From Desulfomicrobium sp. (GTDB taxonomy: Bacteria; Desulfobacterota; Desulfovibrionia; Desulfovibrionales; Desulfomicrobiaceae), in NCBI GenBank assembly GCA_040768745.1, contig JAXGMI010000002.1, positions 160,001 through 224,000 on the forward strand: DNA of 64,000 bases. Reading direction: 5' to 3'. Shown piece after piece: positions 7,160-20,821 of this stretch. The number at the start of each line of letters is the position of its first letter. The stretch's first letter is position 1. The notes under the pieces were generated by a model. The model had not been told where the DNA came from and made no database searches. It saw only the letters and a program-made list of their open reading frames with translations. The translations under genes and the position numbers were made by a program.

Positions 7160-8485
7160 ATGAATATCTGCATTGTCGGCACGGGGTATGTTGGCCTTGT
7201 GTCTGCCGCGTGTTTCGCTGAAATGGGCAACACCGTGACATGTGTGGACATCAATCCGGAAGTGATCGCCAGGCTCAAAAAAGGCGAGGTCCATATTTAC
7301 GAGCCAGGACTGGAAGAGTTGGTCCGTCGCAACGCCAAAGAGGGACGGTTGGCGTTTACCACGGACCTGGCGGAGGGCATGCAGGACACCCTTTTTGTGT
7401 TCTGCTGTGTGGGAACTCCAGAAGGGGAGAATGGCACAGCTGACCTGCGTCACGTCAAGCAGGTGGCCAGCGAGGTGGGCAAAATCATTACCGGTTACAC
7501 GATTTTCGTGGACAAATCCACGGTGCCCGTCGGAACGGCCGACGCGGTGCGTGCCATTATCGAGGCCGAACTCAGCCAGCGCGGAGTGCAGGTGGAGTTT
7601 GACGTGGTCTCCAATCCGGAATTTCTGAAGGAAGGTGACGCGGTCAATGATTTCATGAAGCCTGACCGCGTGGTGGTGGGCACGGACAACGTGCGCACGG
7701 CCGAACTGCTGCGGACCCTATATTCCCCGTATGCCCGCAGTCGGGAAAAGCTGATCGTCATGGGCGTGCGCAGCGCTGAAATGACGAAATACGCGGCAAA
7801 TTGCATGCTGGCCACAAAAATTTCCTTCATCAACGAGATCGCCAATATTTGTGAACGGGTCGGGGCGGATGTGCGCGATGTGCGCCACGGTATCGGAGCT
7901 GACCACCGCATTGGCTATCAATTCATATACCCTGGTGTGGGTTATGGAGGATCGTGCTTCCCCAAGGATGTAAAGGCGTTGATCGGCACTGCCAAGGTCG
8001 CGGGCTATGATCCGCAGCTCCTGTCCGCCGTTGACGAGGTCAATGATCGGCAGAAGATGGTCATCGCCCACAAGATCGAGGCATATTTCAACCAGCAGGG
8101 AGGGGTGGGCGGCAAAACGTTGTCCCTGTGGGGGCTGGCATTCAAGGCCAACACGGATGACATGCGCGAGGCCCCTTCCCTGGCCATGATCCAGCGCTTG
8201 ACAGCCTTGGGCATGCGCATACGTGCGTTTGATCCAGCGGCCGGGGAAAATGCACGACGCATGCTGGCCAAAAATCATCTGGTGGAGATCTGCAACGATC
8301 AGTACGCCGCCTTAGACGGCGCTGAAGCCCTGGCCGTGGTCACCGAATGGAATCAGTTCCGAAATCCCGACTTCGGCAGGGTCAAAAAAGCCCTCAAGGC
8401 CCCTGTCCTGTTTGACGGGCGAAATCTGTATGCTCCCGCTCTCATGGCTGCCGAAGGGTTCGCCTATTTCTGCGTAGGCCGCTGA
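7160..8485 (+). CDS. ugd: UDP-glucose 6-dehydrogenase
   Basis: GTGYVGL, SNPEFLKEG, GYGGSCFPKD, GLAFKANTDDMRE. Confidence 0.95.
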   Translation: MNICIVGTGYVGLVSAACFAEMGNTVTCVDINPEVIARLKKGEVHIYEPGLEELVRRNAKEGRLAFTTDLAEGMQDTLFVFCCVGTPEGENGTADLRHVKQVASEVGKIITGYTIFVDKSTVPVGTADAVRAIIEAELSQRGVQVEFDVVSNPEFLKEGDAVNDFMKPDRVVVGTDNVRTAELLRTLYSPYARSREKLIVMGVRSAEMTKYAANCMLATKISFINEIANICERVGADVRDVRHGIGADHRIGYQFIYPGVGYGGSCFPKDVKALIGTAKVAGYDPQLLSAVDEVNDRQKMVIAHKIEAYFNQQGGVGGKTLSLWGLAFKANTDDMREAPSLAMIQRLTALGMRIRAFDPAAGENARRMLAKNHLVEICNDQYAALDGAEALAVVTEWNQFRNPDFGRVKKALKAPVLFDGRNLYAPALMAAEGFAYFCVGR

Positions 8486-8532
8486 CCAGGTCCGGCTGGG
8501 CCTTGGGTCCAGATCGTTGTTCAATCTGCATG

Positions 8533-8571
8533 ACCAGGGCGCGCTTTTCTGAAGGCGCGCCCTGGTTTTTT
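8533..8571 (+). terminator. Intrinsic terminator after ugd
   Basis: ACCAGGGCGCGC...GCGCGCCCTGGT stem followed by a T run. Confidence 0.8.
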
Positions 8572-8678
8572 GCATGGTTGAGCAAACAAGGGGGCATTGC
8601 AGGTGGCTGCGGGACAACCCTTGTCCACCGCAGGGTCTGCTGGATACTGATCGTCGGCGGACCTGTGCCCGGGGTGGT

Positions 8679-10127
8679 TCATTTGAACTTGACTTCCCCG
8701 TTCAATGTGGAACCGGCCTTGATTACGGCCTGGGTTCCTCCGGTGTTTGTTATCTTGACATCTCCGACACAACGCACGTTTTCCTGGAAAAGAACGTCCC
8801 CTTTGACGGACAAGCTGGTGCATTCCAGCAGAGATGGCGGATTCTTCGGGAAACGGGCCAGAAAAGAGTCAATCTTTTTGTAATAGTCCCCGTCAAGGTT
8901 AATTTGCGGCATGGGCATGGTTCGGGCAGGATTGGGGATAATCGTATCCCGATCAGACCTGATGAAGCAATCCGACATGACCTGCAGGAGGTCGTTCGTC
9001 GTCTTGACAGGGGCAAAGCGTTTTCTGGGCACAACAACTGCCTGTGCGTTGAAAAAATTGGTGATCGCCGATCCCATGGCTGTTTCCAGCTGAAAGACCT
9101 TGGGCGAAACCGGATCACGAGGATCCAGGTTCTTGGGATTGATGATCAGGTCCAGGGGCATCATCCGGTGTGCCACGAAGACTGCCTGCAGGACGCGCAG
9201 GTCCACCCATATGGAGTTGGTGTTGAAGAATTTGTATTTTTCTATGTCGCAAAATGACTTCATCTCCCTATCTGGGCACTGGGCCACCTCGCGCAGGGCA
9301 AATTGCTTGTTCTTTTTCAAACGGCAGAGGTGTCCGCCCTTTTTGTCCTGATCCGTGCGGCGGGCCACTTCCATGAGGAATGGCAGCTTGTGATGAACCA
9401 TGTACCCCAGCAGACGGCGGTTCATTATTGCCCCGAGGTTGTCCGAATTGGAAATGAAGGCATATTCATAGCCCTTGTCCAGAAGGGCATCGAGAATGCC
9501 TGACGTGACCATGGCTGTGTAAATGTCCCCATGTCCAGGGGGGTTCCATTCCAGCTCAGGATTTTGGGGCCAGGATGCCGGAGTGAAGTCTTTAGCGAGT
9601 ATCTTCGGATACTTATGCTGTAAAAACGCCAGGTCAATGCCTGTCAATCCATTATTGAAATCGCCAACCTTGAGCATGGTGTCCATGTGGGTCTTGAAAC
9701 TGTTCATGAACACCTGCGGGAATTCCACCCCGTAATGGGAACGCACGGTTTTGGCCTGAAGCAGGATGAGATCCAGAAAACTCAATCCGTCTTTGACCGG
9801 AATGAGCGATTTGGCCGTTTCCATACCCATGCTTGTCCCCAGACCACCGTTCAGCTTTATCACGGCTATTTTGTGCAGATTTTTTTCACCCAGTGCCTTG
9901 AACGATTCCATTTCCGTGTAGTCTGCCAGTTCCGTTTCAACTACAGGCTGGATCTCACGATCAGGGAGTTTGCCCTGGGCGCCGTAGAGAAATTGATTGA
10001 AGTAACACTTGAAGGTATTGATCACTATGGGCGGCAATCCCTGCTGTTCCATCTTCAAGGCAAAAGGGCGAAACAGGAGGGAGAGCTTTTGGTCGTCGAC
10101 AGTGAAGCAGCTTATTTTTGTGGCCAT
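8679..10127 (-). CDS. UTP--glucose-1-phosphate uridylyltransferase, eukaryotic-type (UDPGP family, not GalU)
   Basis: KLNGGLGTSMG, MNSF, WNPPGHGDIY, SNSDNLGA, DKKGG, FNTN, QLETAMG, RFAPVK and a C-terminal beta-helix-like tail. Confidence 0.92.
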   Translation of the reverse strand: MATKISCFTVDDQKLSLLFRPFALKMEQQGLPPIVINTFKCYFNQFLYGAQGKLPDREIQPVVETELADYTEMESFKALGEKNLHKIAVIKLNGGLGTSMGMETAKSLIPVKDGLSFLDLILLQAKTVRSHYGVEFPQVFMNSFKTHMDTMLKVGDFNNGLTGIDLAFLQHKYPKILAKDFTPASWPQNPELEWNPPGHGDIYTAMVTSGILDALLDKGYEYAFISNSDNLGAIMNRRLLGYMVHHKLPFLMEVARRTDQDKKGGHLCRLKKNKQFALREVAQCPDREMKSFCDIEKYKFFNTNSIWVDLRVLQAVFVAHRMMPLDLIINPKNLDPRDPVSPKVFQLETAMGSAITNFFNAQAVVVPRKRFAPVKTTNDLLQVMSDCFIRSDRDTIIPNPARTMPMPQINLDGDYYKKIDSFLARFPKNPPSLLECTSLSVKGDVLFQENVRCVGDVKITNTGGTQAVIKAGSTLNGEVKFK

Positions 10128-10204
10128 GTGAAGTCCTTACTGTGACAGGTTGTGCTTCATCGCTGTTCCAGCGGTTACGTCAAGGGGATAACATTAAAAA
10201 TAAT

Positions 10205-10939
10205 GGGTCATGACTAGAACAGCGGATAACAAATCTGCTAGGATCGAGTCATGGCAAGGGTTAATAAGTACGCAAATCGTTCAAAAATTTCAGAGGCCAA
10301 ATTCAGGCAATTCTTGAAGCTCTTTTCCTTTGATCTGGATGCATCCCAGATCGCCCTGGTGACTGGCCTAAACAGAAATACCGTGAACAGGTATCTCATG
10401 GCCTTGCGCCAACGAATCGCTGAGTACTGCGAGCGACAAGCCCCAGTTCTCGGGGAAATCGAAGTTGATGAAAGCTACTTCGGGCCTCGCCGAGTCAAAG
10501 GACTCCGAGGTCGTGGCGCAAGCAGTAAAACCATTGTGTTTGGCATCTTCAAGCGCCAAGGCCAAGTCTATACCGAGATCGTGCCTGATTGCAGCCGTGC
10601 CACACTTCAGGCGGTTATCCGAGGTCGAGTCAGCGTCGAAAGCGTCATCCATTCCGATGGATGGCGCGGCTATAACGGCCTGGTGGATATAGGGTACCAG
10701 AAGCATTTCAGGGTCAACCACGGAGACAATGAATTTGCCAATGAACGTAGCCATATCAATGGCATAGAAAGCTTTTGGGGCTATTCGAAAACTCGCCTTG
10801 CCAAGTTCAGAGGTGTCAGCAAGGTAACCTTTTTCTTGCATTTGAAAGATGCGAATTTCGATTTAACAATAGGGGCCAGAACATCTATAAAGTCCTGCTC
10901 AAAATCATCAGGACAAACCCGCTGTTCTAGTCATGACCC
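10205..10939 (+). mobile_element. IS1595-family (IS1016-like) insertion sequence, 735 bp
   Basis: 21-bp perfect terminal IRs GGGTCATGACTAGAACAGCGG; 8-bp direct repeat AAAATAAT at 10197-10204 and 10940-10947. Confidence 0.95.
10251..10930 (+). pseudogene. IS1595-family transposase with a 3' frameshift
   Basis: EVDESYFG, HSDGW and HINGIESFW are intact. One base is missing near 10849; the shifted frame restores CEFRFNNRGQNIYKVLLKIIRTNPLF*. Confidence 0.8.
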
Positions 10940-11052
10940 AAAATAATTTAGTCCATGACTCTGATTTCGTCCACAATATCTTGCAGAGAAAAAATATCGG
11001 ACCTGCCCAGGGGCTGGCTGGAGTGGAAGGCCCTTGATGTTCACATCTTGGA

Positions 11053-13009
11053 CAGGAGTTTCGAAAGTTTCTGGCCAAATGAATCGATTATCTCCAACAA
11101 TACAGCATATAGCTTTTGATTTTCTGTAAGACCCCACGCTCGACTTCATAGCCGAACGCAGCCAGGACCCTGGCCTGATCCGGCGTTGGCTCCTCGATCA
11201 TCCGCCATGCCTTTTCCTTCTCTCCGTTCCAGCACAGGCACGAATGCAGATTACGCATGAGGTCCATGGTCCGCTGCGCGGTCATATGGATGCCGGCGTC
11301 TTCCAGCTTCAGCTCGATCAGGCGCAGATAGGCCAAGGCTACGATGCAGCTCAGGAAATGGCACCTGATTTTCGAATCGGTCCAGTGCCGTATCGGGAAC
11401 ATGCTGACCAGGTCATCGTCCTTGGTCTGACGGAACGCCTGTTCCACGATGTATCTGTCCAGGCTGGCCTGGACGATCTCGTCCGTGCTCCAATCGGCGT
11501 GGTCGGTAATGAGGATGTTCTTGCCGAACCTGTCGATATGCCGGCTGATGCGGTAGTAGTTCTTGCGGAAACCCAGGATGGTCTGCCCGTCCTTGCGTTC
11601 AAAGGTCAGGTCGTACAGGTCCTTGGGCAGATGCAGGTCTTCGCAAACCTGTTCATACCGTTCCCGCACCTTGGCTTCCTGTCTCCAGCCCCGGGCATCC
11701 TCCCGGACCTTGCCCCGGATTTCGTACAGCGCGGCCTGGAGCTTTTGCAGCTTGGCTTCGAAGGCATATCGCTGCTTGGTCGCCGTGAGCGGGTTGTACG
11801 TCACGACGACGGTGCGTTCCCGGCCCCAGTATTCTCCGGTCGTGCGCCAGGCCGACAGGAGATCGTCCTCGCGGCCCTGGGCCTTGAGTTCCCGGTTGTG
11901 TACAGTCTCGACGGCCGAGAACTGGTCACGTCCGGCATGAATGAGTTCTTCGGCGAAATATGGGGAATACGTGGTGATGAAGTGGGCGCCGTCCGTGGCG
12001 TCAATGGCGCAGATGTTCTCCGGAGAGTTCATGCCCTTGTCGAAGACGATGGTCACGTCCTTTTGTCCGCAACCCTGCATTGTCGCGCAAACTTCGTCGA
12101 TGATCGACTGGAACAAGCGTGAATCATGTCGGTTGCCTTCGTATTCGCGGTAAAAGAACGGCAGCCGGGTTTGCCTGTCGACCAGCAGGGCCAGCCCGAC
12201 CTGCCTGGGCCAGTCCCGTCCTTCCTTGTTCTTGCCGCGTTTGGCCAGTTCCGACTCGGTATCGCTGGCCATGAACGTGAAGTAGTTGGTGGTGTCGAAC
12301 AGGAAGCATCCCGAGGTCGAAGGCCGCAGTTCCGCAATCCTGGCAAAGAGCTTCTGGGCGATGTCGCGCAGATGCTTCTCCTCCACCAATCCCCATTTGC
12401 GCCAATAGCCATCTGAATCCAGCGCCTGGATATCGGCGGCTCGAATGGACTGGATGGCCGTATGGGCGAACCATTCCGGCAGCGCCCGTTTGGACGTGGC
12501 GTCGACCATGCGGTTGAAGGCGGCGTAGAGAAAGTACTCACCGACGCTTGGCCCGGAATCCTTGGATTTCTGCGGGACGATCCCGTCAATGATCCCGGTC
12601 ACGCCGACCATCTTTTCGATCTCGTTTGCCAGCCACAACGCGCCGAACTCCTGGACCTGAATGCGACTCAGGTCCGTAGACTTCTGCCCAGTGACCAGGC
12701 TGAGAATCTTTTCCACTGTGCCGAGGTAGACCTGATTCACAACCTTGGGCTTGCCGTTCACACGGGCAATCTCGCGGATGTAGAAGTAGGGTCTTCCGTT
12801 TTTCATTTTCTTATGGAGGTGCGCCATGTCTCGGCCATACCATAAGGGTCTTATACATGCAATAAAAATCGTTCTTTTTTGGTGAAAAATCAGCAAGTTG
12901 TGTCGTGGAAAAACGGGAAAAGAAGAGGGTCTTACAGCAAATATAAAGATAATAGCCTGGAATTATGAAGAAAATAGACAAGGTTCAGGAGAATTTTTCG
13001 AAACTCCTG
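11053..13009 (-). mobile_element. IS1634-family insertion sequence (~1.96 kb)
   Basis: IRs CAGGAGTTTCGAAA at 11053-11066 and 12996-13009 bracket the transposase; no target duplication seen. Confidence 0.85.
11088..12827 (-). CDS. IS1634-family DDE transposase
   Basis: MAHLHKKMKNGRPYFYIRE..RVNGKPKV N-terminus; FDTT, VFDKGM, VEQAFR and PIRHWTD motifs. Confidence 0.92.
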   Translation of the reverse strand: MAHLHKKMKNGRPYFYIREIARVNGKPKVVNQVYLGTVEKILSLVTGQKSTDLSRIQVQEFGALWLANEIEKMVGVTGIIDGIVPQKSKDSGPSVGEYFLYAAFNRMVDATSKRALPEWFAHTAIQSIRAADIQALDSDGYWRKWGLVEEKHLRDIAQKLFARIAELRPSTSGCFLFDTTNYFTFMASDTESELAKRGKNKEGRDWPRQVGLALLVDRQTRLPFFYREYEGNRHDSRLFQSIIDEVCATMQGCGQKDVTIVFDKGMNSPENICAIDATDGAHFITTYSPYFAEELIHAGRDQFSAVETVHNRELKAQGREDDLLSAWRTTGEYWGRERTVVVTYNPLTATKQRYAFEAKLQKLQAALYEIRGKVREDARGWRQEAKVRERYEQVCEDLHLPKDLYDLTFERKDGQTILGFRKNYYRISRHIDRFGKNILITDHADWSTDEIVQASLDRYIVEQAFRQTKDDDLVSMFPIRHWTDSKIRCHFLSCIVALAYLRLIELKLEDAGIHMTAQRTMDLMRNLHSCLCWNGEKEKAWRMIEEPTPDQARVLAAFGYEVERGVLQKIKSYMLYCWR

Positions 13010-13507
13010 TCAGATCATCCCCGTTTTCTGCAGGGCCTTGGCTGCAAACAGCCCGCCCACGGCCCCGCCCACGGCCTGGATCAGGTTGGCCGGGATCTCG
13101 GCCACGGCACCCTGCAGTCCGATGTTGGGCATCAGCGTTTCCCCAATGAAATACACGGCCACCATGGCCGTCCCTCCGAGGCCCAGCAGCATGTAACGTC
13201 CAGTTCCGGTTCTGTTGGCGGCCATGGCCGCTGCAGCTGCTTCCGCGCCCTTGGCCATGAGGGTCAGGGGGGCGAAGACAGCGAAGCCGCCAAAGACGTC
13301 GGCCAGGGCTGAGCCGATGCCGGCCGCGCCAAAGGCCCACAGGATGCCCTGGCGCGGCTGCAGGAATCCCAGCACCAGACCGCCGAAGACCACCGCCACG
13401 TCCCCGACGTTAAAATACCCGCGGCTGGGCAGTGGCACGCGCACAAAGAGGGTGATCAGGCAGGTAAGGGCTACGATGGACAGGGCTGCGATGCGGATAT
13501 TCTTCAT
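13010..13507 (-). CDS. ECF transporter substrate-binding S component
   Basis: About six TM helices; RVPLPSRGYFNVGD..V, GIGSALAD and PANLIQ are typical S-component motifs. Confidence 0.88.
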   Translation of the reverse strand: MKNIRIAALSIVALTCLITLFVRVPLPSRGYFNVGDVAVVFGGLVLGFLQPRQGILWAFGAAGIGSALADVFGGFAVFAPLTLMAKGAEAAAAAMAANRTGTGRYMLLGLGGTAMVAVYFIGETLMPNIGLQGAVAEIPANLIQAVGGAVGGLFAAKALQKTGMI

Positions 13508-14100
13508 TGCTGTTTCCTCACATACGAACGTCGATGCTCTATGAGCGTCACGGTTTTTTCGGTTTCCCGGTACAGGCTGATGTACGCGGCCACAATGACC
13601 CCGCCTAGCCGCTGCAGCTTGGCCCAGCGCCTGCCTTCGAAATGAGGGGAAAGGTCCATGAAAAAGCGGTGCCGGTGCAGGACGGGAGTACATTTTTCCA
13701 TGACCGCCTTCAAGACGATGGCCAGGCGTCGTACCCTGTTGGGCAGGGGCAGGATGACAATGTCACGGAAAGTGATGGCCTGCAGGCAAAGCTTCACGGC
13801 CAGGACGGAATTGGGAAAGACCAAGGCCTTGATCAGGGAGTCCGCCAGCCAGTCCGATCGGCCCAAGAGTCCCATCCACTGGAAGAGGGCGCCGAAGGCC
13901 AGGAGAGAGAGGACAAAGGGCAGGACAAAACCGAAAACCTGCCGCGTGCCCTTTATTCCCCCCTTGAATGTGTTGATAACCAACAGTCCGATCAGCAACG
14001 CGGCTTGGATGTCGATGTGTTCATACCAGGGGCCATAGACCAGAAGCCTGAAATAGAGGCCCAGCGCAAGGAGGATGGCCGCGAGCTTGAGGACTACCAT
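13504..14100 (-). CDS. Divergent EcfT-like membrane component
   Basis: Hydrophobic N-terminal half, amphipathic basic C-terminal helices; translationally coupled to the S component. Confidence 0.6.
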   Translation of the reverse strand: MVVLKLAAILLALGLYFRLLVYGPWYEHIDIQAALLIGLLVINTFKGGIKGTRQVFGFVLPFVLSLLAFGALFQWMGLLGRSDWLADSLIKALVFPNSVLAVKLCLQAITFRDIVILPLPNRVRRLAIVLKAVMEKCTPVLHRHRFFMDLSPHFEGRRWAKLQRLGGVIVAAYISLYRETEKTVTLIEHRRSYVRKQQ

Positions 14101-14609
14101 GCCTGCTCCAGGCGCACGTCCACGTCAGGGCCCGCGTTTGTGCGTTCGAAAAGGAGCCGGAACCCTCGCCTGTGCTGCGTCCTGGGCCGGGTTTCGCACA
14201 GGTGGGAAACTTTCACCACCCAGGAAAAGTCGAGCCGGTCCAAGGTCTCTCTCTGCTCTGGACGCAGGTATTTCTCGAATTCATCGAGAATGAGTGTGTC
14301 CCGGCTTGGGCAGGCCTGAATCCAGGCCAGGGCTAGGCTGGTGATGCCGACTGGAACCTCCTGTCCCAGCAGGGCCAGGGTCGCGGCCATGGTGTGGCGC
14401 TGCAGATCCATGTCCTGGGCCAGGTAGAGGATCCGGTGTGTGGATCGTGCTGACGGAATGAGCACGCGTTCCAAAAAAGTGCTCTTTCCTGCCCCGTTTT
14501 CACCGCACAGCACGAGCAGCGATCCGGAAGCCAGAGCCAGAGGTGCGGTCAGGTGGAAGCGCAGCCCGGCGTTTGCTGCTTCATGGATGCCTGCGGGAAG
14601 CTCAAGCAT
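14094..14609 (-). CDS. Truncated ABC ATPase (RecA-like core: Walker A, Q-loop, Walker B, H-switch; no signature motif)
   Basis: GENGAGKST, YLAQD, LILDE and VSH in only 171 aa; no LSGGQ-like sequence. Confidence 0.8.
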   Translation of the reverse strand: MLELPAGIHEAANAGLRFHLTAPLALASGSLLVLCGENGAGKSTFLERVLIPSARSTHRILYLAQDMDLQRHTMAATLALLGQEVPVGITSLALAWIQACPSRDTLILDEFEKYLRPEQRETLDRLDFSWVVKVSHLCETRPRTQHRRGFRLLFERTNAGPDVDVRLEQAW

Positions 14610-15012
14610 GGATGGCCCTTGGTCCGCTGGGTGTGAGGGTGAAAAGAGTGGCCGCCGGAAGCATGGTCGCGAATTTCAGGAGCAGGAGCTCTCGGTTCTT
14701 CGGGGACAGGGTTTCCAGCACACGGACCAGCATGATCTGCAGTGGATCCCGGGGCAGCAGGCGCATGAGCAGCAGGCAGCACAGTATGGCCTGTTCTCCC
14801 CCGGAGTAGGAATCGAGCCTGCGCCCGCGATCCGGCACAAAGCCGAAAGAAAGCGCATCGGTTTTCAGGTCCGCAAAAAGAGCATCTCCGGCTCCAAGGA
14901 CCAGGATCTCGTCTTCCAGGGTGGCGCAGACAAACAGGCTGTGGATGTCGATGACGCAGTATCCGGCGCCGAATTCCGCGATGGTGTCGTGAGTCATGCC
15001 GGGCATGTGCAC
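14602..15012 (-). CDS. ABC helical-subdomain/signature-motif-only protein (EcfA-like fragment)
   Basis: FVCATLEDEI resembles EcfA FVGATVEDDV; RRLDSYSGGEQ is a signature motif; Walker B/D-loop degenerate; no Walker A. Start codon uncertain. Confidence 0.65.
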   Translation of the reverse strand: MHMPGMTHDTIAEFGAGYCVIDIHSLFVCATLEDEILVLGAGDALFADLKTDALSFGFVPDRGRRLDSYSGGEQAILCCLLLMRLLPRDPLQIMLVRVLETLSPKNRELLLLKFATMLPAATLFTLTPSGPRAIHA

Positions 15013-15065
15013 TGCGTCCTGGTTGTGCTTGACGGGCTGAAAAAGGGATGCAAAAGACCTAGGCC

Positions 15066-15488
15066 ATGATCAAATACAGTGTCGAATGCTGGCTTTACAA
15101 CCCCCTGACCGACCGTTTTCTGCTCCTGCGCTGTCCCCAGACCTACCGCCATGACGAGTACTGGCAACCCGTGACCGGAGGGCGCGGTCCCGGAGAGCCC
15201 TGCATCGAGGCCTGCCTTCGGGAAGTGCAGGAGGAAACAGGGTTTGCCCTGGTTCCTGAGCAGTTGGAAGTGGTTATCCCCGAATTCACCTTCTGCATTC
15301 CCGATGCCCGCATCGAACTGCACAAGCCCGTCTATCTGGCCCGGGTCACAACCGAGCACGTGGTCATTTCCCCGGAGCATATCGCCTACTACTGGTTTGA
15401 CGCCGACCAGGTGGAGTCCCGTCTGCATTGGGATTCCAACCGGGAATCTTTTCGTCAGGTCCTGAACTATTCCCGCCTGCCTTGCTGA
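15066..15488 (+). CDS. NUDIX hydrolase (NudB/NtpA-like)
   Basis: WQPVTGG and Nudix box GE...EACLREVQEETG; SPEH..Y.W. Confidence 0.88.
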   Translation: MIKYSVECWLYNPLTDRFLLLRCPQTYRHDEYWQPVTGGRGPGEPCIEACLREVQEETGFALVPEQLEVVIPEFTFCIPDARIELHKPVYLARVTTEHVVISPEHIAYYWFDADQVESRLHWDSNRESFRQVLNYSRLPC

Positions 15489-16063
15489 CCATTCAGCAGT
15501 TCCTCCAGATACGCAACCACTTCGGGGGCATCCCACTGGGCCATGCCCGTGTGCTTGAATACCAGTCTCCCTTCCCGGTCGAAAATAAAGGTCGTGGGGA
15601 GGCCGGGGACCGTCAGCTCTGCAGGTACATCTGATGTGAAGACGTAGAGGGGCATGGCTACGGTCTTGGGAAAAGGATGGGAGCGGACATCCACGAGCAC
15701 CTCATCGCTGATACACAGAATGGCTATGTCCGGACGGTCGTGAAACCGTTTCCACAAATTTTCCAAGGACGGCATCTCCGCGCGGCACGGAGGGCACCAT
15801 GTGGCCCACAGGTTGAGCAGCACGACACTTCCGCGCAGGCTGTGCAGCCTGCGCGTCTGTCCTGCCAGGTCAGAAAATTCTGCCGCGAGCTCCCAGAGCC
15901 GCGAGCCGACAGGCACGGAGGATGCGCCCAGTGTCATTTCGGTGTTGCCTTCCTCCTGCGCGAAACTGCTCATGAACAGCAGCCCGGCCCCTGCTTCCAG
16001 CAGCAAAAGACAGAGGGCGCCGCTCAGGAATCCCGCGATGGATGTATTGGTGAAGATGGACAT
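15467..16063 (-). CDS. TlpA-family thiol:disulfide oxidoreductase
   Basis: LNLWATWCPPCRAEMP, GLPTTFI; N-terminal membrane anchor. Confidence 0.9.
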   Translation of the reverse strand: MSIFTNTSIAGFLSGALCLLLLEAGAGLLFMSSFAQEEGNTEMTLGASSVPVGSRLWELAAEFSDLAGQTRRLHSLRGSVVLLNLWATWCPPCRAEMPSLENLWKRFHDRPDIAILCISDEVLVDVRSHPFPKTVAMPLYVFTSDVPAELTVPGLPTTFIFDREGRLVFKHTGMAQWDAPEVVAYLEELLNGQQGRRE

Positions 16064-16069
16064 AGGCGT

Positions 16070-16846
16070 TCAGGGGGTCGGTGGTTGAGATTCGGTCAAA
16101 CCAAGGTCAGCCTTGAGGGCGGCAACTTCCTCCTCAGCCAGGTGCCGCCATGCGCCGGGCTCCAGGTCGCCAAGCCGCAAGGGGCCGATGGCCACACGTC
16201 GCAGGCGCAGGATGGTCAGATGGAGATCCCGAAACATGCGTCGGATCTGCCGGTTTACTCCCTGGCGCAGGGTCAGGCGCAACAGGGTCTTGCCGTCAGG
16301 CTGGACCGAGGCCATGACCGCCACGGGGCTCAGCCGCTCGCCCTCCTGGAGGCGCATGCCCGAGCGCATGATCTTTTGGGCCTGTTCCGAAACGTGCTCC
16401 CGGACCAGGACCTCGTACACCTTGGGGTGCTCGTGGCGGGGGTGAGTCAGGCGCAGGGTGACCTCGCCATCGTTGGTCAGCAGCAGCAGCCCTTCGGACA
16501 TGTAGTCCAGGCGGCCCACAGGGAACAGCCGGAGGGCGCGCAGCTCGTCGGGCAACAGTTCCAGGACCGTGGGACGTCCCTGGGGGTCGCGGACTGTGGT
16601 CACGGTATGCACGGGTTTGTTCAGAATCACGTATTCCAGCTGTTTTCCGGCCAGGGGCGGATGGACTGTCTGACCGTTGACCTGGACCTTGTCCTGCATC
16701 GGCACAACCCGCACGCCCGGCTCGCGCTGGACGTGGCCGTTGACCTGCACGCGTCCGGCCAGGATCAGCTCGTCCGCACCGCGGCGGGAGGAAAGGCCGG
16801 CATCGGCCAGGAATTTGTTGAGGCGCACGGGGGTGTTGGCGGGCAT
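16070..16846 (-). CDS. rluB: rRNA pseudouridine synthase, RsuA/RluB family
   Basis: S4 domain RLNKFLADAG.SRR; PVGRLD catalytic motif; RQIRRM. Confidence 0.88.
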   Translation of the reverse strand: MPANTPVRLNKFLADAGLSSRRGADELILAGRVQVNGHVQREPGVRVVPMQDKVQVNGQTVHPPLAGKQLEYVILNKPVHTVTTVRDPQGRPTVLELLPDELRALRLFPVGRLDYMSEGLLLLTNDGEVTLRLTHPRHEHPKVYEVLVREHVSEQAQKIMRSGMRLQEGERLSPVAVMASVQPDGKTLLRLTLRQGVNRQIRRMFRDLHLTILRLRRVAIGPLRLGDLEPGAWRHLAEEEVAALKADLGLTESQPPTP

Positions 16847-16923
16847 GGCGAAGCAATAGAGAGAACCCTGTTTCAGGGCAAGCAAAAAGCCGTGGAAAGT
16901 GCGCGTGCCAGGAGTAGGCAGGC

Positions 16924-17556
16924 TTATTTGTGATTGATGTCCGTTCCGCGATCCAGGTCGCGAAAGGTCTTTGGTTCCTCGGCGCTGCGGGTGATGCACA
17001 GATCATGGATCAGGCCGTTGGAAATGGAGTAGATCCAGCCGTGCAGGTAGAGGATCCGGCCCCGGTTCCAGGCTTTGCGCACGATGCTGTTCTGGGCCAG
17101 ATGGCGGACCTGCAGACGGACATTCAGTTCGCACAGATCATCCAGACTGGGATGGGAAGTCGCCTCCATGAGGTGCTTCACGTTTTCCAACCAATGTTCG
17201 AGCAGGCCGGTGGTTTGGTCCTTCATGACCGCCTCGATCCCCCCGCACCCGTAATGCCCGCAGACGATGATGTGCTTCACTCGCAGCACGTCAATGGCGT
17301 ATTGCAGGACGCACATGAGGTTGATGTCCGTGTTGATGACCTGGTTGGAGATGTTGCGGTGCACGAAGACCTCGCCCGGCATGACGCCGATGAGCTGGTC
17401 AGCGGGCACGCGGCTGTCGGAGCAGCCGATCCACAGGAACTTGGGCTTGTGCTGGTTCTCCAGCTTGCGGAAGAAGCCGGGAATGTTCTTTTCGACGTTC
17501 TGGGCCCAGATCCGGTTGTTGTCGAGCAGCTTGGCGATTTCTTTCATGTCATTCAT
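16924..17556 (-). CDS. can: Beta-class carbonic anhydrase
   Basis: WIGCSDSRVP, FVHRNI and CGHYGCGG zinc ligands; start uncertain (17556 or 17547). Confidence 0.93.
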   Translation of the reverse strand: MNDMKEIAKLLDNNRIWAQNVEKNIPGFFRKLENQHKPKFLWIGCSDSRVPADQLIGVMPGEVFVHRNISNQVINTDINLMCVLQYAIDVLRVKHIIVCGHYGCGGIEAVMKDQTTGLLEHWLENVKHLMEATSHPSLDDLCELNVRLQVRHLAQNSIVRKAWNRGRILYLHGWIYSISNGLIHDLCITRSAEEPKTFRDLDRGTDINHK

Positions 17557-17806
17557 CCGTTGGGGGCTGGTGCGTACTGATTGTTTACTCATTTTGTCCG
17601 GATCGCGCAATGCGTCTCCCGTACCCGGAAACGATCGGGGCGCACGGGTGGACCAAAAGCGCGGGTTGGGCTAGACTGGTAGTCTGCTGGAAGGAATCGT
17701 CATCTTATCCCGGCAGCGCCGCAGCCCCCTCCACGCCTTTGCATCATGCTCCCTTCCGCCGGCTACGGGCGTGGAACCCGTTCACCACAATCCCTGTGAG
17801 GTTGCA

Positions 17807-19597
17807 ATGAACCTGGACAGTTCACGATGGTGCGCGCGCACCTTCATCGCGGAACACGCCGGCGTCTTCGACGTGGTCAGGACCGCCCCCGACCTCGACG
17901 CGGCGCGCAAGGCGCTCTATCTTTTCGTGACCGAGCGTCAGTATCTGATCCTCTTCGACGACCGCCAGCACAACTCCTTCGAGATGACGGTGGCCCGGGA
18001 CTGCGCCCGCGTCCTGCGCGCGGTTCTGGCCAGAGGCTCCGACGCCCGGGCCGGCTTCAGCGTGGCCCAGACCCTGTGGGACCTGGCCCGCGGCGTGGAG
18101 CGCGCGGACCTGACGGTCGGCTTTTTCGCCGAGCTGTCGCACCTTTTCCACGGCCTGAACGGCACGCCCCTGGATGTAACCCCCGAACCCTCGGACCGGG
18201 ACGGGGTCAGCGGGCGCGAGGCCGCCGTGGCCAGGTCCCTTGAACTCGACCGCATCTGGGAGGGTATCGAGCAGGCCATGGCGCGCTACGAATCGGGCCT
18301 TGAACCGGCCTCCATGGACCGGCGCAGGCAGCGCAGGCAGGAGCTCCAGGCCCTGCTCGGGGCATCGGACCGCGAGTGGGAGGACTGGCGCTGGCAGGTG
18401 CGCAACATCATTGAGGACGCCGACGGCCTGGCTGCGGCCGTCAACCTGCGCGATGACGAGCGGGCCGCCGTAACGCAGGCGGTCCGGACGAAGCAGCCTT
18501 TCGGGATCACACCGTATTACTCCTCCCTCATGGACAACGACCCCGAAACCGGCCGCGACCGGGCCGTACGCTCCCAGGTCATCCCGCCGGTCTCCTACGT
18601 GAAGTGCATGGCCGCCCACGGCGACAGCCGGTCCGAGGCCTTCGACTTCATGCGCGAGGCCGACACGTCGCCCATTGATCTCGTCACGCGGCGCTACCCA
18701 GCAATCGTCATCCTCAAGCCCTTCAACACCTGTCCGCAGATCTGCGTCTACTGCCAGCGCAACTGGGAGATCGAGCGGGCCATGGCGCCGGGGGCCATGG
18801 CGTCCCGGGCCGACCTGGAGAGCGCCGTGGAGTGGGTCAGACGGCACCCGGCCATCAAGGAGGTCCTGGTCACGGGCGGCGACCCCCTGGCCATGGGCGA
18901 CGGTCCCCTGGATCGCATCCTGAAAAGCGTCGCGGACATCCCCCACGTGGAGCTCATCCGCATCGGCACGCGTACGCCCGTGACCCTGCCCATGCGCATC
19001 ACGCCGGGGCTGGCCCGCATGCTCGGCTCCTTCCGCGAGCCCGGGGTGCGCGACGTCTGCCTGGTCACCCACGTGGAGCATGTTTCGGAAGTGACGCCGG
19101 AATTCGTGACCGCCGTGGACAGGCTCAAACGGCAGGGCGTGAGCGTCTACAACCAGCTCGTCTTCACGTTTCACGTCTCCCGGCGCTTCGAGGCCGCGGC
19201 CCTGCGGCGGCTCCTGCGCAGATGCGGGGTGGAGCCCTATTACACCTTCGCGCCCAAGGGCAAGGAGGAGACGGAAGACTACCGCGTGCCCATCGCCCGC
19301 ATTCTGCAGGAGCAGCAGGAGGAGGCGCGCCTGCTGCCGGGCATGCGCCGCACCGACGCGCCCGTCTTCAACGTGCCGGGCCTGGGCAAGAACCACCTGC
19401 GCGCCGCCCAGAACCGCGACGTGGTGTCCATCCTGCCCGACGGCTCGCGGGTCTACGAGTTCCACCCGTGGGAGAAGAACATCGTCGAGCGCGACTCCTA
19501 CGTCGGTCAGGACGTGCCGATACTGACGTATCTTGAGCGCCTGGCCGCCATCGGTGAGGATCCGGACGAGTATTCGAGCATCTGGTACTATTATTAG
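17807..19597 (+). CDS. KamA-family radical SAM/PLP protein (lysine 2,3-aminomutase-like) with N-terminal extension
   Basis: W.DWRWQ, PFGITPYY, CPQICVYC, VLVTGGDPL, RIGTRTPV, PGLGK. Confidence 0.9.
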   Translation: MNLDSSRWCARTFIAEHAGVFDVVRTAPDLDAARKALYLFVTERQYLILFDDRQHNSFEMTVARDCARVLRAVLARGSDARAGFSVAQTLWDLARGVERADLTVGFFAELSHLFHGLNGTPLDVTPEPSDRDGVSGREAAVARSLELDRIWEGIEQAMARYESGLEPASMDRRRQRRQELQALLGASDREWEDWRWQVRNIIEDADGLAAAVNLRDDERAAVTQAVRTKQPFGITPYYSSLMDNDPETGRDRAVRSQVIPPVSYVKCMAAHGDSRSEAFDFMREADTSPIDLVTRRYPAIVILKPFNTCPQICVYCQRNWEIERAMAPGAMASRADLESAVEWVRRHPAIKEVLVTGGDPLAMGDGPLDRILKSVADIPHVELIRIGTRTPVTLPMRITPGLARMLGSFREPGVRDVCLVTHVEHVSEVTPEFVTAVDRLKRQGVSVYNQLVFTFHVSRRFEAAALRRLLRRCGVEPYYTFAPKGKEETEDYRVPIARILQEQQEEARLLPGMRRTDAPVFNVPGLGKNHLRAAQNRDVVSILPDGSRVYEFHPWEKNIVERDSYVGQDVPILTYLERLAAIGEDPDEYSSIWYYY

Positions 19598-19600
19598 GCC

Positions 19601-19630
19601 GAAAAAAAGCCTCCCCGGCGGGGGAGGCTT
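19601..19630 (-). terminator. Intrinsic terminator of the Liv-type operon
   Basis: AAGCCTCCCC-GGCG-GGGGAGGCTT perfect stem with a U tract on the minus strand; lies between convergent genes. Confidence 0.85.
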
Positions 19631-19663
19631 CGTGTCTCTCTGGAGTGCCCAACAGTCAAGGTG

Positions 19664-20821
19664 TCACTTGGCCATGACAAACTTGCCATTCTTGACCTGG
19701 ACCATGACCATGGAATCGACACCCAAACCGTTGTGGTCCTCTGGAGTCAGGTTGTAGGTGCCGGAAATGCCCACATAGTTCGTGGTCTTCTGGATGGCTG
19801 CGCGCAGGGCCTCAGGCTCGGTGCCCGCCGCCTTGATGGCATTGACCACAATCATGATGGCGTCCCAGGCATAGCCCGAATGGGTGTTGATGGGGAACTG
19901 CTTGTCGTAGCCCTTTTCGGTGTACAGCTTGATAAACTCCTTGATGACGGGCTTCTGCGGATCCGTGTCAGGAAGTTCGTCGGCCACCATGAGCTTGGTG
20001 GCGGGCATCAGATTGTCTTCGGCCGCGGGTCCGGCCAGCTCGATGTATTCGGGGGAAGGCTGTCCGTGGCATTGGAACATGGGCAGGTCGATGCCCAGCT
20101 GGGCTCTGTTCTTGGCCGCGATGGGCCCGGCCGGGCCCGTGGTCCAGACCACCAGGGCCTGGGGGGAGGCGTTCTTGGCCTTGGTCAGCTGGGCGGTCAT
20201 GTCCGTGTCCCGTGCGCCAAAGGATTCCTTGCTGACCAGCTCGATTCCGAATTGCGGACCCAGCTCTTCCATCCAGCGCAGTCCATCCTTGCCGAACCCG
20301 TCGTCAGCCGAAAGCAGGGCGATCTTGGTCAGCTTTTTTTCCTTCAGGTACATGAACAGGCGCTCCACAGCAGTCTTGGAGCGCTGGGGTGACTTGAAGA
20401 CCCAGTCGAAGGGGCCGAATTTGCCGCCCATGATGACCGGGTCCCCACCAACGGTCATGACGATGGGAGTCTTTCCCTCGTGCGCGATTTTTTTGACGTT
20501 CATGCCCGTGTCGGTCAGTGTCGGCCCGATGATGGCCACGACCTTGTCCTTGTGGATGAACTTGGTGGCAATGTTGGCCGCCTTGGCAGGATCGCCTTCG
20601 GTATCGCCAATGACGAGTTCCAGCTTTTTGCCGTTGATGCCTCCTTCGGCATTGAGCTTGTCCACGACCATCTCGGCTACCAGCTTGGTGGGTGTGCCGA
20701 TGACGGATGCGCGCCCCGACAGGTCGAAAAAGGCACCCAGTTTGATGGTGTCCGCCGCCAGGGCCGGTGCTGACAGCAGCACAAGGCCGGTCAGAATTCC
20801 AAAAATCGTGCGCATGTCCAT
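19664..20821 (-). CDS. Branched-chain amino acid-type ABC substrate-binding protein (LivK family)
   Basis: Signal peptide, IKLGA..DLSG, N..GGINGKKL, DDGFG.DG, AWDA. Confidence 0.9.
   Translation of the reverse strand: MDMRTIFGILTGLVLLSAPALAADTIKLGAFFDLSGRASVIGTPTKLVAEMVVDKLNAEGGINGKKLELVIGDTEGDPAKAANIATKFIHKDKVVAIIGPTLTDTGMNVKKIAHEGKTPIVMTVGGDPVIMGGKFGPFDWVFKSPQRSKTAVERLFMYLKEKKLTKIALLSADDGFGKDGLRWMEELGPQFGIELVSKESFGARDTDMTAQLTKAKNASPQALVVWTTGPAGPIAAKNRAQLGIDLPMFQCHGQPSPEYIELAGPAAEDNLMPATKLMVADELPDTDPQKPVIKEFIKLYTEKGYDKQFPINTHSGYAWDAIMIVVNAIKAAGTEPEALRAAIQKTTNYVGISGTYNLTPEDHNGLGVDSMVMVQVKNGKFVMAK

Follow-up and report, generated by a model that had tools for sequence, protein, structure and literature searches.

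The catalytic sites of ABC transporters are composite, each pairing the Walker A and Walker B motifs of one nucleotide-binding domain (NBD) with the signature motif of the other, and energy-coupling factor (ECF) modules normally use two full EcfA domains. The number of ATP sites that an ABC motor needs is an old question, usually probed by point mutants, and TAP and CFTR are familiar asymmetric transporters with a degenerate site. Asymmetric transporters of the TM287/288 type are likewise reported to combine a single hydrolytic site in each dimer with reciprocal loss of motifs at the other site; such degenerate-site exporters retain two full-length domains, in which the second site is substituted and still able to bind nucleotide (PMC3971661). 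In the L. delbrueckii system ECF-FolT2, closure of the ATPase dimer is described as bending the EcfT coupling helices and resetting the S component, and a single Glu-to-Gln exchange in either ATPase abolishes both ATPase activity and transport; both catalytic glutamates are reported as required in ECF-FolT/CbrT (PMC10368641). A Q-helix (X-P-D/E-X-Q-hydrophobic) and a groove acid have been defined for each A subunit (PMC6828968).

Here we describe a cassette of four genes in Desulfomicrobium sp., located in a window of 64,000 nucleotides (contig JAXGMI010000002.1, positions 160,001 to 224,000), that is probably an ECF-derived micronutrient importer, made of an S component, a T component and two ATPase remnants in a 1:1:1:1 ratio and driven by a one-site motor. 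The four overlapping genes claimed by an earlier sequence-only reading are borne out; all lie on the minus strand, with overlaps of 8, 7 and 4 nt in the order A-B-T-S. The features, in window coordinates, are as follows.

15066-15488 (+), divergent Nudix hydrolase
14602-14997 (-), signature half (A), 131 aa from ATG; 14602-15012, 136 aa from GTG
14791-14808 (-), signature motif YSGGEQ, in A
14094-14609 (-), Walker half (B), 171 aa
14478-14504 (-), Walker A motif GENGAGKST, in B
14280-14294 (-), Walker B motif LILDE with the catalytic Glu, in B
13504-14100 (-), compact EcfT-like coupling subunit (T), 198 aa
13010-13507 (-), HmpT-like S component (S), 165 aa

Homologue alignments favour the ATG at 14997 over the GTG at 15012 as the start of A. 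Together the four proteins total approximately 670 residues, and neither A nor T has a meaningful Pfam or NCBIfam match; the cassette offers an explanation for a family of small 'hypothetical' proteins missed by both collections. Contigs from RNA libraries (three runs of one study) span the S and Nudix genes and the last part of T; A and B are not covered, and contigs of this kind cannot show absence. Rfam gave no match within positions 8000-20000 of the window, and promoter and terminator scans returned counts at chance level.

The gene order of the cassette is the A-A'-T-S order of L. delbrueckii ECF-FolT2, L. brevis ECF-HmpT/PanT and other group I operons, and it shares with canonical ECF transporters a PF07155 S component, probable EcfT-like coupling helices, an EcfA1-like helical subdomain with a putative groove acid, and a Q-helix Gln in one partner. 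The differences lie in the motor. Canonical ECF ATPases have approximately 280-290 aa and form two complete ABC domains with two composite sites, whereas the halves of 131 and 171 aa are neither of them a whole domain and leave one site possible; the canonical EcfT, at approximately 265 aa, is also longer than T. Both A and B lack the C-terminal dimerisation helices found in canonical ECF, a loss that counts against the one-site reading because the open state would need another means of being held together. Since two complete ATPases are absent, we regard the cassette as an ECF-derived variant that by analogy would work like an ECF transporter, and not as a canonical member.

The Walker half contains all of the motifs claimed for it, GENGAGKST, Q65, LILDE and H136, and lacks a signature. 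Residues G36, N38, G39, G41, K42, Q65, D109, E110 and H136 are invariant in 48/48 rows (50 search matches minus two fragments), and the same motif residues, together with Q70, which takes the place of the Q-helix Gln of ECF ATPases, are unchanged in all 14 rows of a more remote set; the D-loop Asp position of B itself varies while all of these cis motifs stay fixed. The distance from the Q-loop to the Walker B Asp is 44 residues, compared with 77 in full EcfA1, indicating a deletion of approximately 33 residues that includes the signature and leaves most of the helical subdomain missing. In hhalign comparisons with EcfA1 and EcfA2 reference sets of four sequences each, B aligns to residues 28-208 of EcfA1 (probability 95.0) and to EcfA2 over 55 columns only (probability 92.1). 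B may descend from EcfA2, albeit it is not nearer to EcfA2 than to EcfA1, which, like the absence of the groove acid from B, counts against the full one-site account.

The signature half is in most respects the reverse. It carries YSGGEQ and the FVCATLEDEI segment, as first noticed, along with a helical subdomain, a D-loop-equivalent ETLS and an acidic residue, E30; it lacks a P-loop, the Q-loop Gln, the Walker B acids (MLVRV stands in the Walker B place) and the His. By profile alignment A is an EcfA1-derived remnant, matching EcfA1 residues 86-186 with probability 95.3 and E 2.4e-8, compared with a poorer probability of 52.8 for EcfA2 (hhalign). The predicted structure of A (pLDDT 93.6) retrieves EcfA chains at the top of a Foldseek search (E 6.8e-4 and 8.7e-4), and in VIA-align all 131 residues map to ABC domains, from NBD residue ~42 to 191-210, so that A would start just past the P-loop; the best match there is 2pjz_A (Z 8.3, rmsd 3.5, 118 aligned). 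A profile search of the PDB ranked TAL-repeat proteins above EcfA (E 0.047); the TAL matches, which sum sub-threshold repeats, were rejected.

Conservation within A centres on the elements that a trans-acting partner would contribute. S65-G66-G67-E68 and E30 are invariant in 22/22 rows, and across 49 diverse rows SGG is the most conserved element, with its S and second G unchanged in all 49. A distant subgroup (P0121, P0122, P0124, P0128, P0129, P0133 and P0148) has SSG or STG instead. E30 aligns with D102 of EcfA1, which is invariant in the four-sequence set; in L. delbrueckii EcfA1, the acid of this helix, D105, is reported to bind the CH2 arginine of EcfT (PMC6828968), and we equate E30 with it as a putative EcfT-binding groove acid. 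The canonical combination of Q-helix and groove acid thus appears divided between the halves, with B keeping the Gln (Q70) and lacking the Pro and the acid, and A keeping the acid and lacking the Gln.

The two halves do not derive from a single frameshifted gene. Both cover the same EcfA1 segment, 86-186, identifying A and B as remnants of two domains; this upholds both the earlier argument against one frameshifted gene and the proposed reciprocal reduction of two ATPases. A direct comparison of the A and B profiles gave no alignment. A structural model of B and A with ATP and Mg scored 0.78, compared with 0.01 for the best of three controls; the mark used for such scores is attained by 116/157 solved and 2/215 mismatched pairs, rates that apply only approximately to the present case. 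At least 81% of contacts recur between modelling runs, with a partner pLDDT of at least 83, and the models place residues 36-43, 65-66, 110 and 136 of B against the signature and D-loop region of A. The interface is thus predicted to be a canonical composite site, with the A signature docked onto the B P-loop, in keeping with the interaction that the earlier reading had proposed, although the predictor may have reproduced ABC dimers of known structure.

Identification of the T component relies on structural comparison. In the T model (pLDDT 84.7), membrane helices lead into a pair of long C-terminal helices (121-150 and 160-197) that carry the conserved residues R143, which is invariant, and R190. 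EcfT chains take ranks 1 and 2 among 350,542 chains in Foldseek, but at E 0.9, with a TMq of 0.56 to ATP-bound EcfT (8bms_C). VIA-align superposes 184/198 residues on EcfT 5d3m_D (Z 7.1, rmsd 8.2) and again 184/198 on CbiQ 5x41_Q (Z 6.2, rmsd 5.8); among the top 50 VIA-align rows EcfT and CbiQ align most residues of T, while most others align one helix pair. R190 aligns weakly with EcfT R226, the CH3 Arg (E 0.18), and the canonical CH2 X-Arg-X is not at its usual place in T, R143 lying about two turns earlier in a register set by eye. T has no CbiQ Pfam match, and neither T nor S matched the PDB by sequence. T is probably a compact EcfT by its modelled fold, at scores that are sub-threshold; this, like the absence of the CH2 motif from its usual place, counts against the one-site account.

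Across the family, the cassette is widely conserved. A was found in 29 of 35 genomes, and a profile search returned the same 29; a 30th initial match, in G027, was weak, proved to be a full ordinary ATPase and was left out of the count. S occurs in the same 29 genomes, and the six that lack both include two that are 100% complete and four at 69-89%. The order A-B-T is kept in 29/29 loci and S adjoins in 28/29, with A spanning 122-142 aa (one copy is cut at a contig end) and B 161-181 aa. Relatives carry two halves and not a full-length EcfA at all 29 loci, and the reciprocal motif loss is conserved in them, so that the full-length genes in close relatives that would have told against the earlier reading were not observed. 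A and B are never in frame with each other (offset 1 in 26 loci, offset 2 in 3), and are spaced by -8 nt in 23/29 loci and by -23 to +253 nt in the rest. In 25/29 loci A is immediately preceded, at a distance of 53-68 nt, by the divergent Nudix gene, and there is no space for N-terminal sequence that A might have lost.

In the exceptional genome G002, S sits on another contig, after coaD-like and rsmD-like genes, and is convergent with the former; an unlinked S recalls a group-II-like arrangement. At L106:1902-2156 and L189:2436-2690, approximately 250 nt separate A from B and hold an inverted-repeat element, presumably REP-like. A and B thus tolerate uncoupling at these two loci.

Both halves appear to be under purifying selection. 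Between G004 and G016, the dN/dS ratio is approximately 0.15 for A (~17.5 synonymous and 8.5 non-synonymous changes) and 0.18 for B (21 and 12), values that agree with the ratio below 1 expected by the earlier reading and that were counted by hand for this one genome pair with a quarter of sites taken as synonymous. Within the genus, identity is approximately 75-84% for S and 40-67% for A and B.

Beyond the family, the signature half has an apparently sporadic distribution. Searching 1.84 billion representatives with the A profile yielded 76 matches; stand-alone proteins of 110-160 aa account for approximately 55 of them, and the others are fragments, N-terminally extended calls and full ABC or SMC proteins. 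A metagenome scan with 14 of these gave 12 loci, of which nine were read (L182-L184, L186, L188, L189 and L191-L193). In eight of the nine, A is followed by a signature-less Walker protein; the ninth, L193, encodes an SMC protein and was dropped from the counts. The complete A-B-T-S order is present in L184, L186 (where S is listed only as a C-terminal 115-aa frame), L188, L189 and L191, and A followed by B in L182, L183 and L192. L189 is close to the family member G030, and the other four A-B-T-S loci have unrelated neighbours. Look-alike clusters in the ESM Atlas come mostly from Thermodesulfobacteriota, Bacillota and Cloacimonadota. Genome sampling, which does not establish absence, gave no stand-alone A in 366 genomes of the order's other families (profile search) or in 251 and 401 genomes of two other phyla (E 1e-9), and none was found in the plasmids searched. 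Among 400 genomes of the phylum, the best 150 matches listed, G000 apart, were poor (E no better than 8e-8) and fell within long frames, with the exception of one frame of 108 aa. When B was compared with named genomes, the 80 loci listed held only ordinary ABC ATPases.

A plausible course of events begins with an ancestral ecfA1-ecfA2-ecfT-S operon in which the motor lost one composite ATP site of its two, the parts of that site being later deleted from both partners. A would have kept the trans elements (signature and D-loop region) together with the groove acid that anchors an EcfT coupling helix, and B the cis elements (P-loop, Q-loop, catalytic Glu and His). Mg-ATP held on B would be clamped by A, closing the dimer on one side; the coupling helices of EcfT would bend as a result and the S component would be released or reset, with one ATP hydrolysed per closure. 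Joint ATP hydrolysis, a 1:1 stoichiometry, coupling to T and transport are steps that we infer. As in degenerate-site ABC transporters, the consensus site is predicted by the docking model to combine the Walker motifs of one partner with the signature of the other. In contrast to them, the P-loop and signature region of the second site are deleted, and the setting is an ECF-type importer.

A single site that suffices is not the default expectation, because both glutamates are needed in the best-studied ECF, that of L. delbrueckii. This requirement would be respected if A instead supplied the helical subdomain of B in cis, so that two A+B units formed a two-site motor, A2B2TS; the subdomain is indeed mostly missing in B and present in A, and the docking model covers a 1:1 complex only. 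We consider such domain complementation improbable, since A keeps RecA-core strands and repeats the Q-loop-to-D-loop segment of B, which would clash in cis, since the model puts A in trans on the B P-loop, and since EcfT has only two coupling helices. The motor could also be non-hydrolysing or dispensable, with ATP binding serving only as a switch or a scaffold, in which case S would import largely alone. Although the higher conservation of S, its unlinked copy in G002 and the apparent degradation of one EcfT anchor pair are compatible with this, the catalytic Glu, His, Lys and Q-loop Gln of B do not vary in any of the 48 or 14 rows, and gain and loss of A and S coincide across the 35 genomes, making this explanation unlikely as well.

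Two further explanations concern the nature of A itself. B might be a signature-less ATPase acting alone, as a homodimer or with a partner such as CbiO, and A a mere docking adaptor for EcfT. The best Pfam match of B is AAA_22 (ABC_tran follows at E 1.5e-5), distant B proteins weakly match NACHT/AAA_22 and not ABC_tran, and A has retained the putative EcfT-binding acid; yet an adaptor would not need the SGG that is the best-conserved part of A and that is predicted to contact the B P-loop, and we judge this explanation very unlikely. Least probable of all is a single product, arising by programmed frameshift fusion or from a decayed or mis-sequenced gene. The 8-nt overlap is retained at most loci, and a database protein of 267 aa (P0078) joins the A start to the B start, but P0078 is known from one contig only and contains out-of-frame stretches. 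Both frame offsets occur, gaps reach 253 nt, the relatives of A are for the most part stand-alone, dN/dS is well below 1, and 8000 scored candidates included no A+B fusion of 250-2000 aa, itself weak evidence.

We hold with moderate confidence that the one-site cassette represents a new, sporadically distributed ECF subclass with a minimal ABC motor, in which a signature-less ATPase would depend on a signature-only pseudo-ATPase as its obligatory activator, and closure on one side would suffice to drive the EcfT scissor movement and toppling of S at the cost of one ATP per cycle. If so, the stand-alone signature halves (~55 clusters at 50% identity) would define this subclass across several phyla. 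The only CbiQ-type T gene of the genome adjoins its own full ATPase elsewhere, so that no other full EcfA pair is evident. A split ECF motor was not described in the literature searched, mostly the main texts of open-access papers. Evolution appears to have deleted one site wholly, with the result kept across a family and in unrelated hosts, providing a natural test of the smallest motor able to drive such transport. A small natural one-site ECF could serve to measure ATP consumed per substrate and to view the effect of one-sided closure on the coupling helices, and the cassette suggests that importers have been missed in the annotation of these anaerobes.

The substrate may be a B6 vitamer or a similar heterocycle, an assignment by analogy that we make tentatively. 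S matches Pfam PF07155 (E 1.5e-18, 67.8 bits over a cut-off of 26.7), is the only such match in the genome and lies nearest to HmpT clusters in the ESM Atlas, where its first match is 'HmpT family' (0.93); a sequence comparison with the solved HmpT gave no match. HmpT is reported to bind pyridoxamine via Glu41, His84, Gln87, Tyr120, Asn140 and Gln143 (PMC4860826). Invariant residues Y119, N141 and Q144 of S correspond, by position only, to Tyr120, Asn140 and Gln143, accounting for three of the six pocket residues, while S has no counterpart of the His/Gln pair near 84-87 of HmpT/PdxU2, with K86 and E89 there instead. The genome encodes PdxS and has no PdxJ match; since PdxS is present, the host is not evidently a B6 auxotroph. 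The best NCBIfam match of the Nudix neighbour is dihydroneopterin triphosphate diphosphatase, below cut-off; the Nudix gene might conceivably share a promoter with the cassette or connect it with pterins. In the metagenome locus L183, an NMT1/THI5-like binding protein gene (379-1359) lies directly upstream of A, a possible hint of a thiamine precursor.

Other features of the window lie outside the cassette. A DDE transposase (PF01609) lies just downstream of S, where two transposase ORFs are found at 11088-12896 (-) and 10251-10946 (+), the second transposase-like ORF being, we assume, IS1595-like; these are probably insertions unrelated to the cassette. At 17771-19597 (+), the window also encodes a 608-aa radical SAM protein with a CxxxCxxC motif, on which basis we take it to be KamA-like, and a long N-terminal extension.
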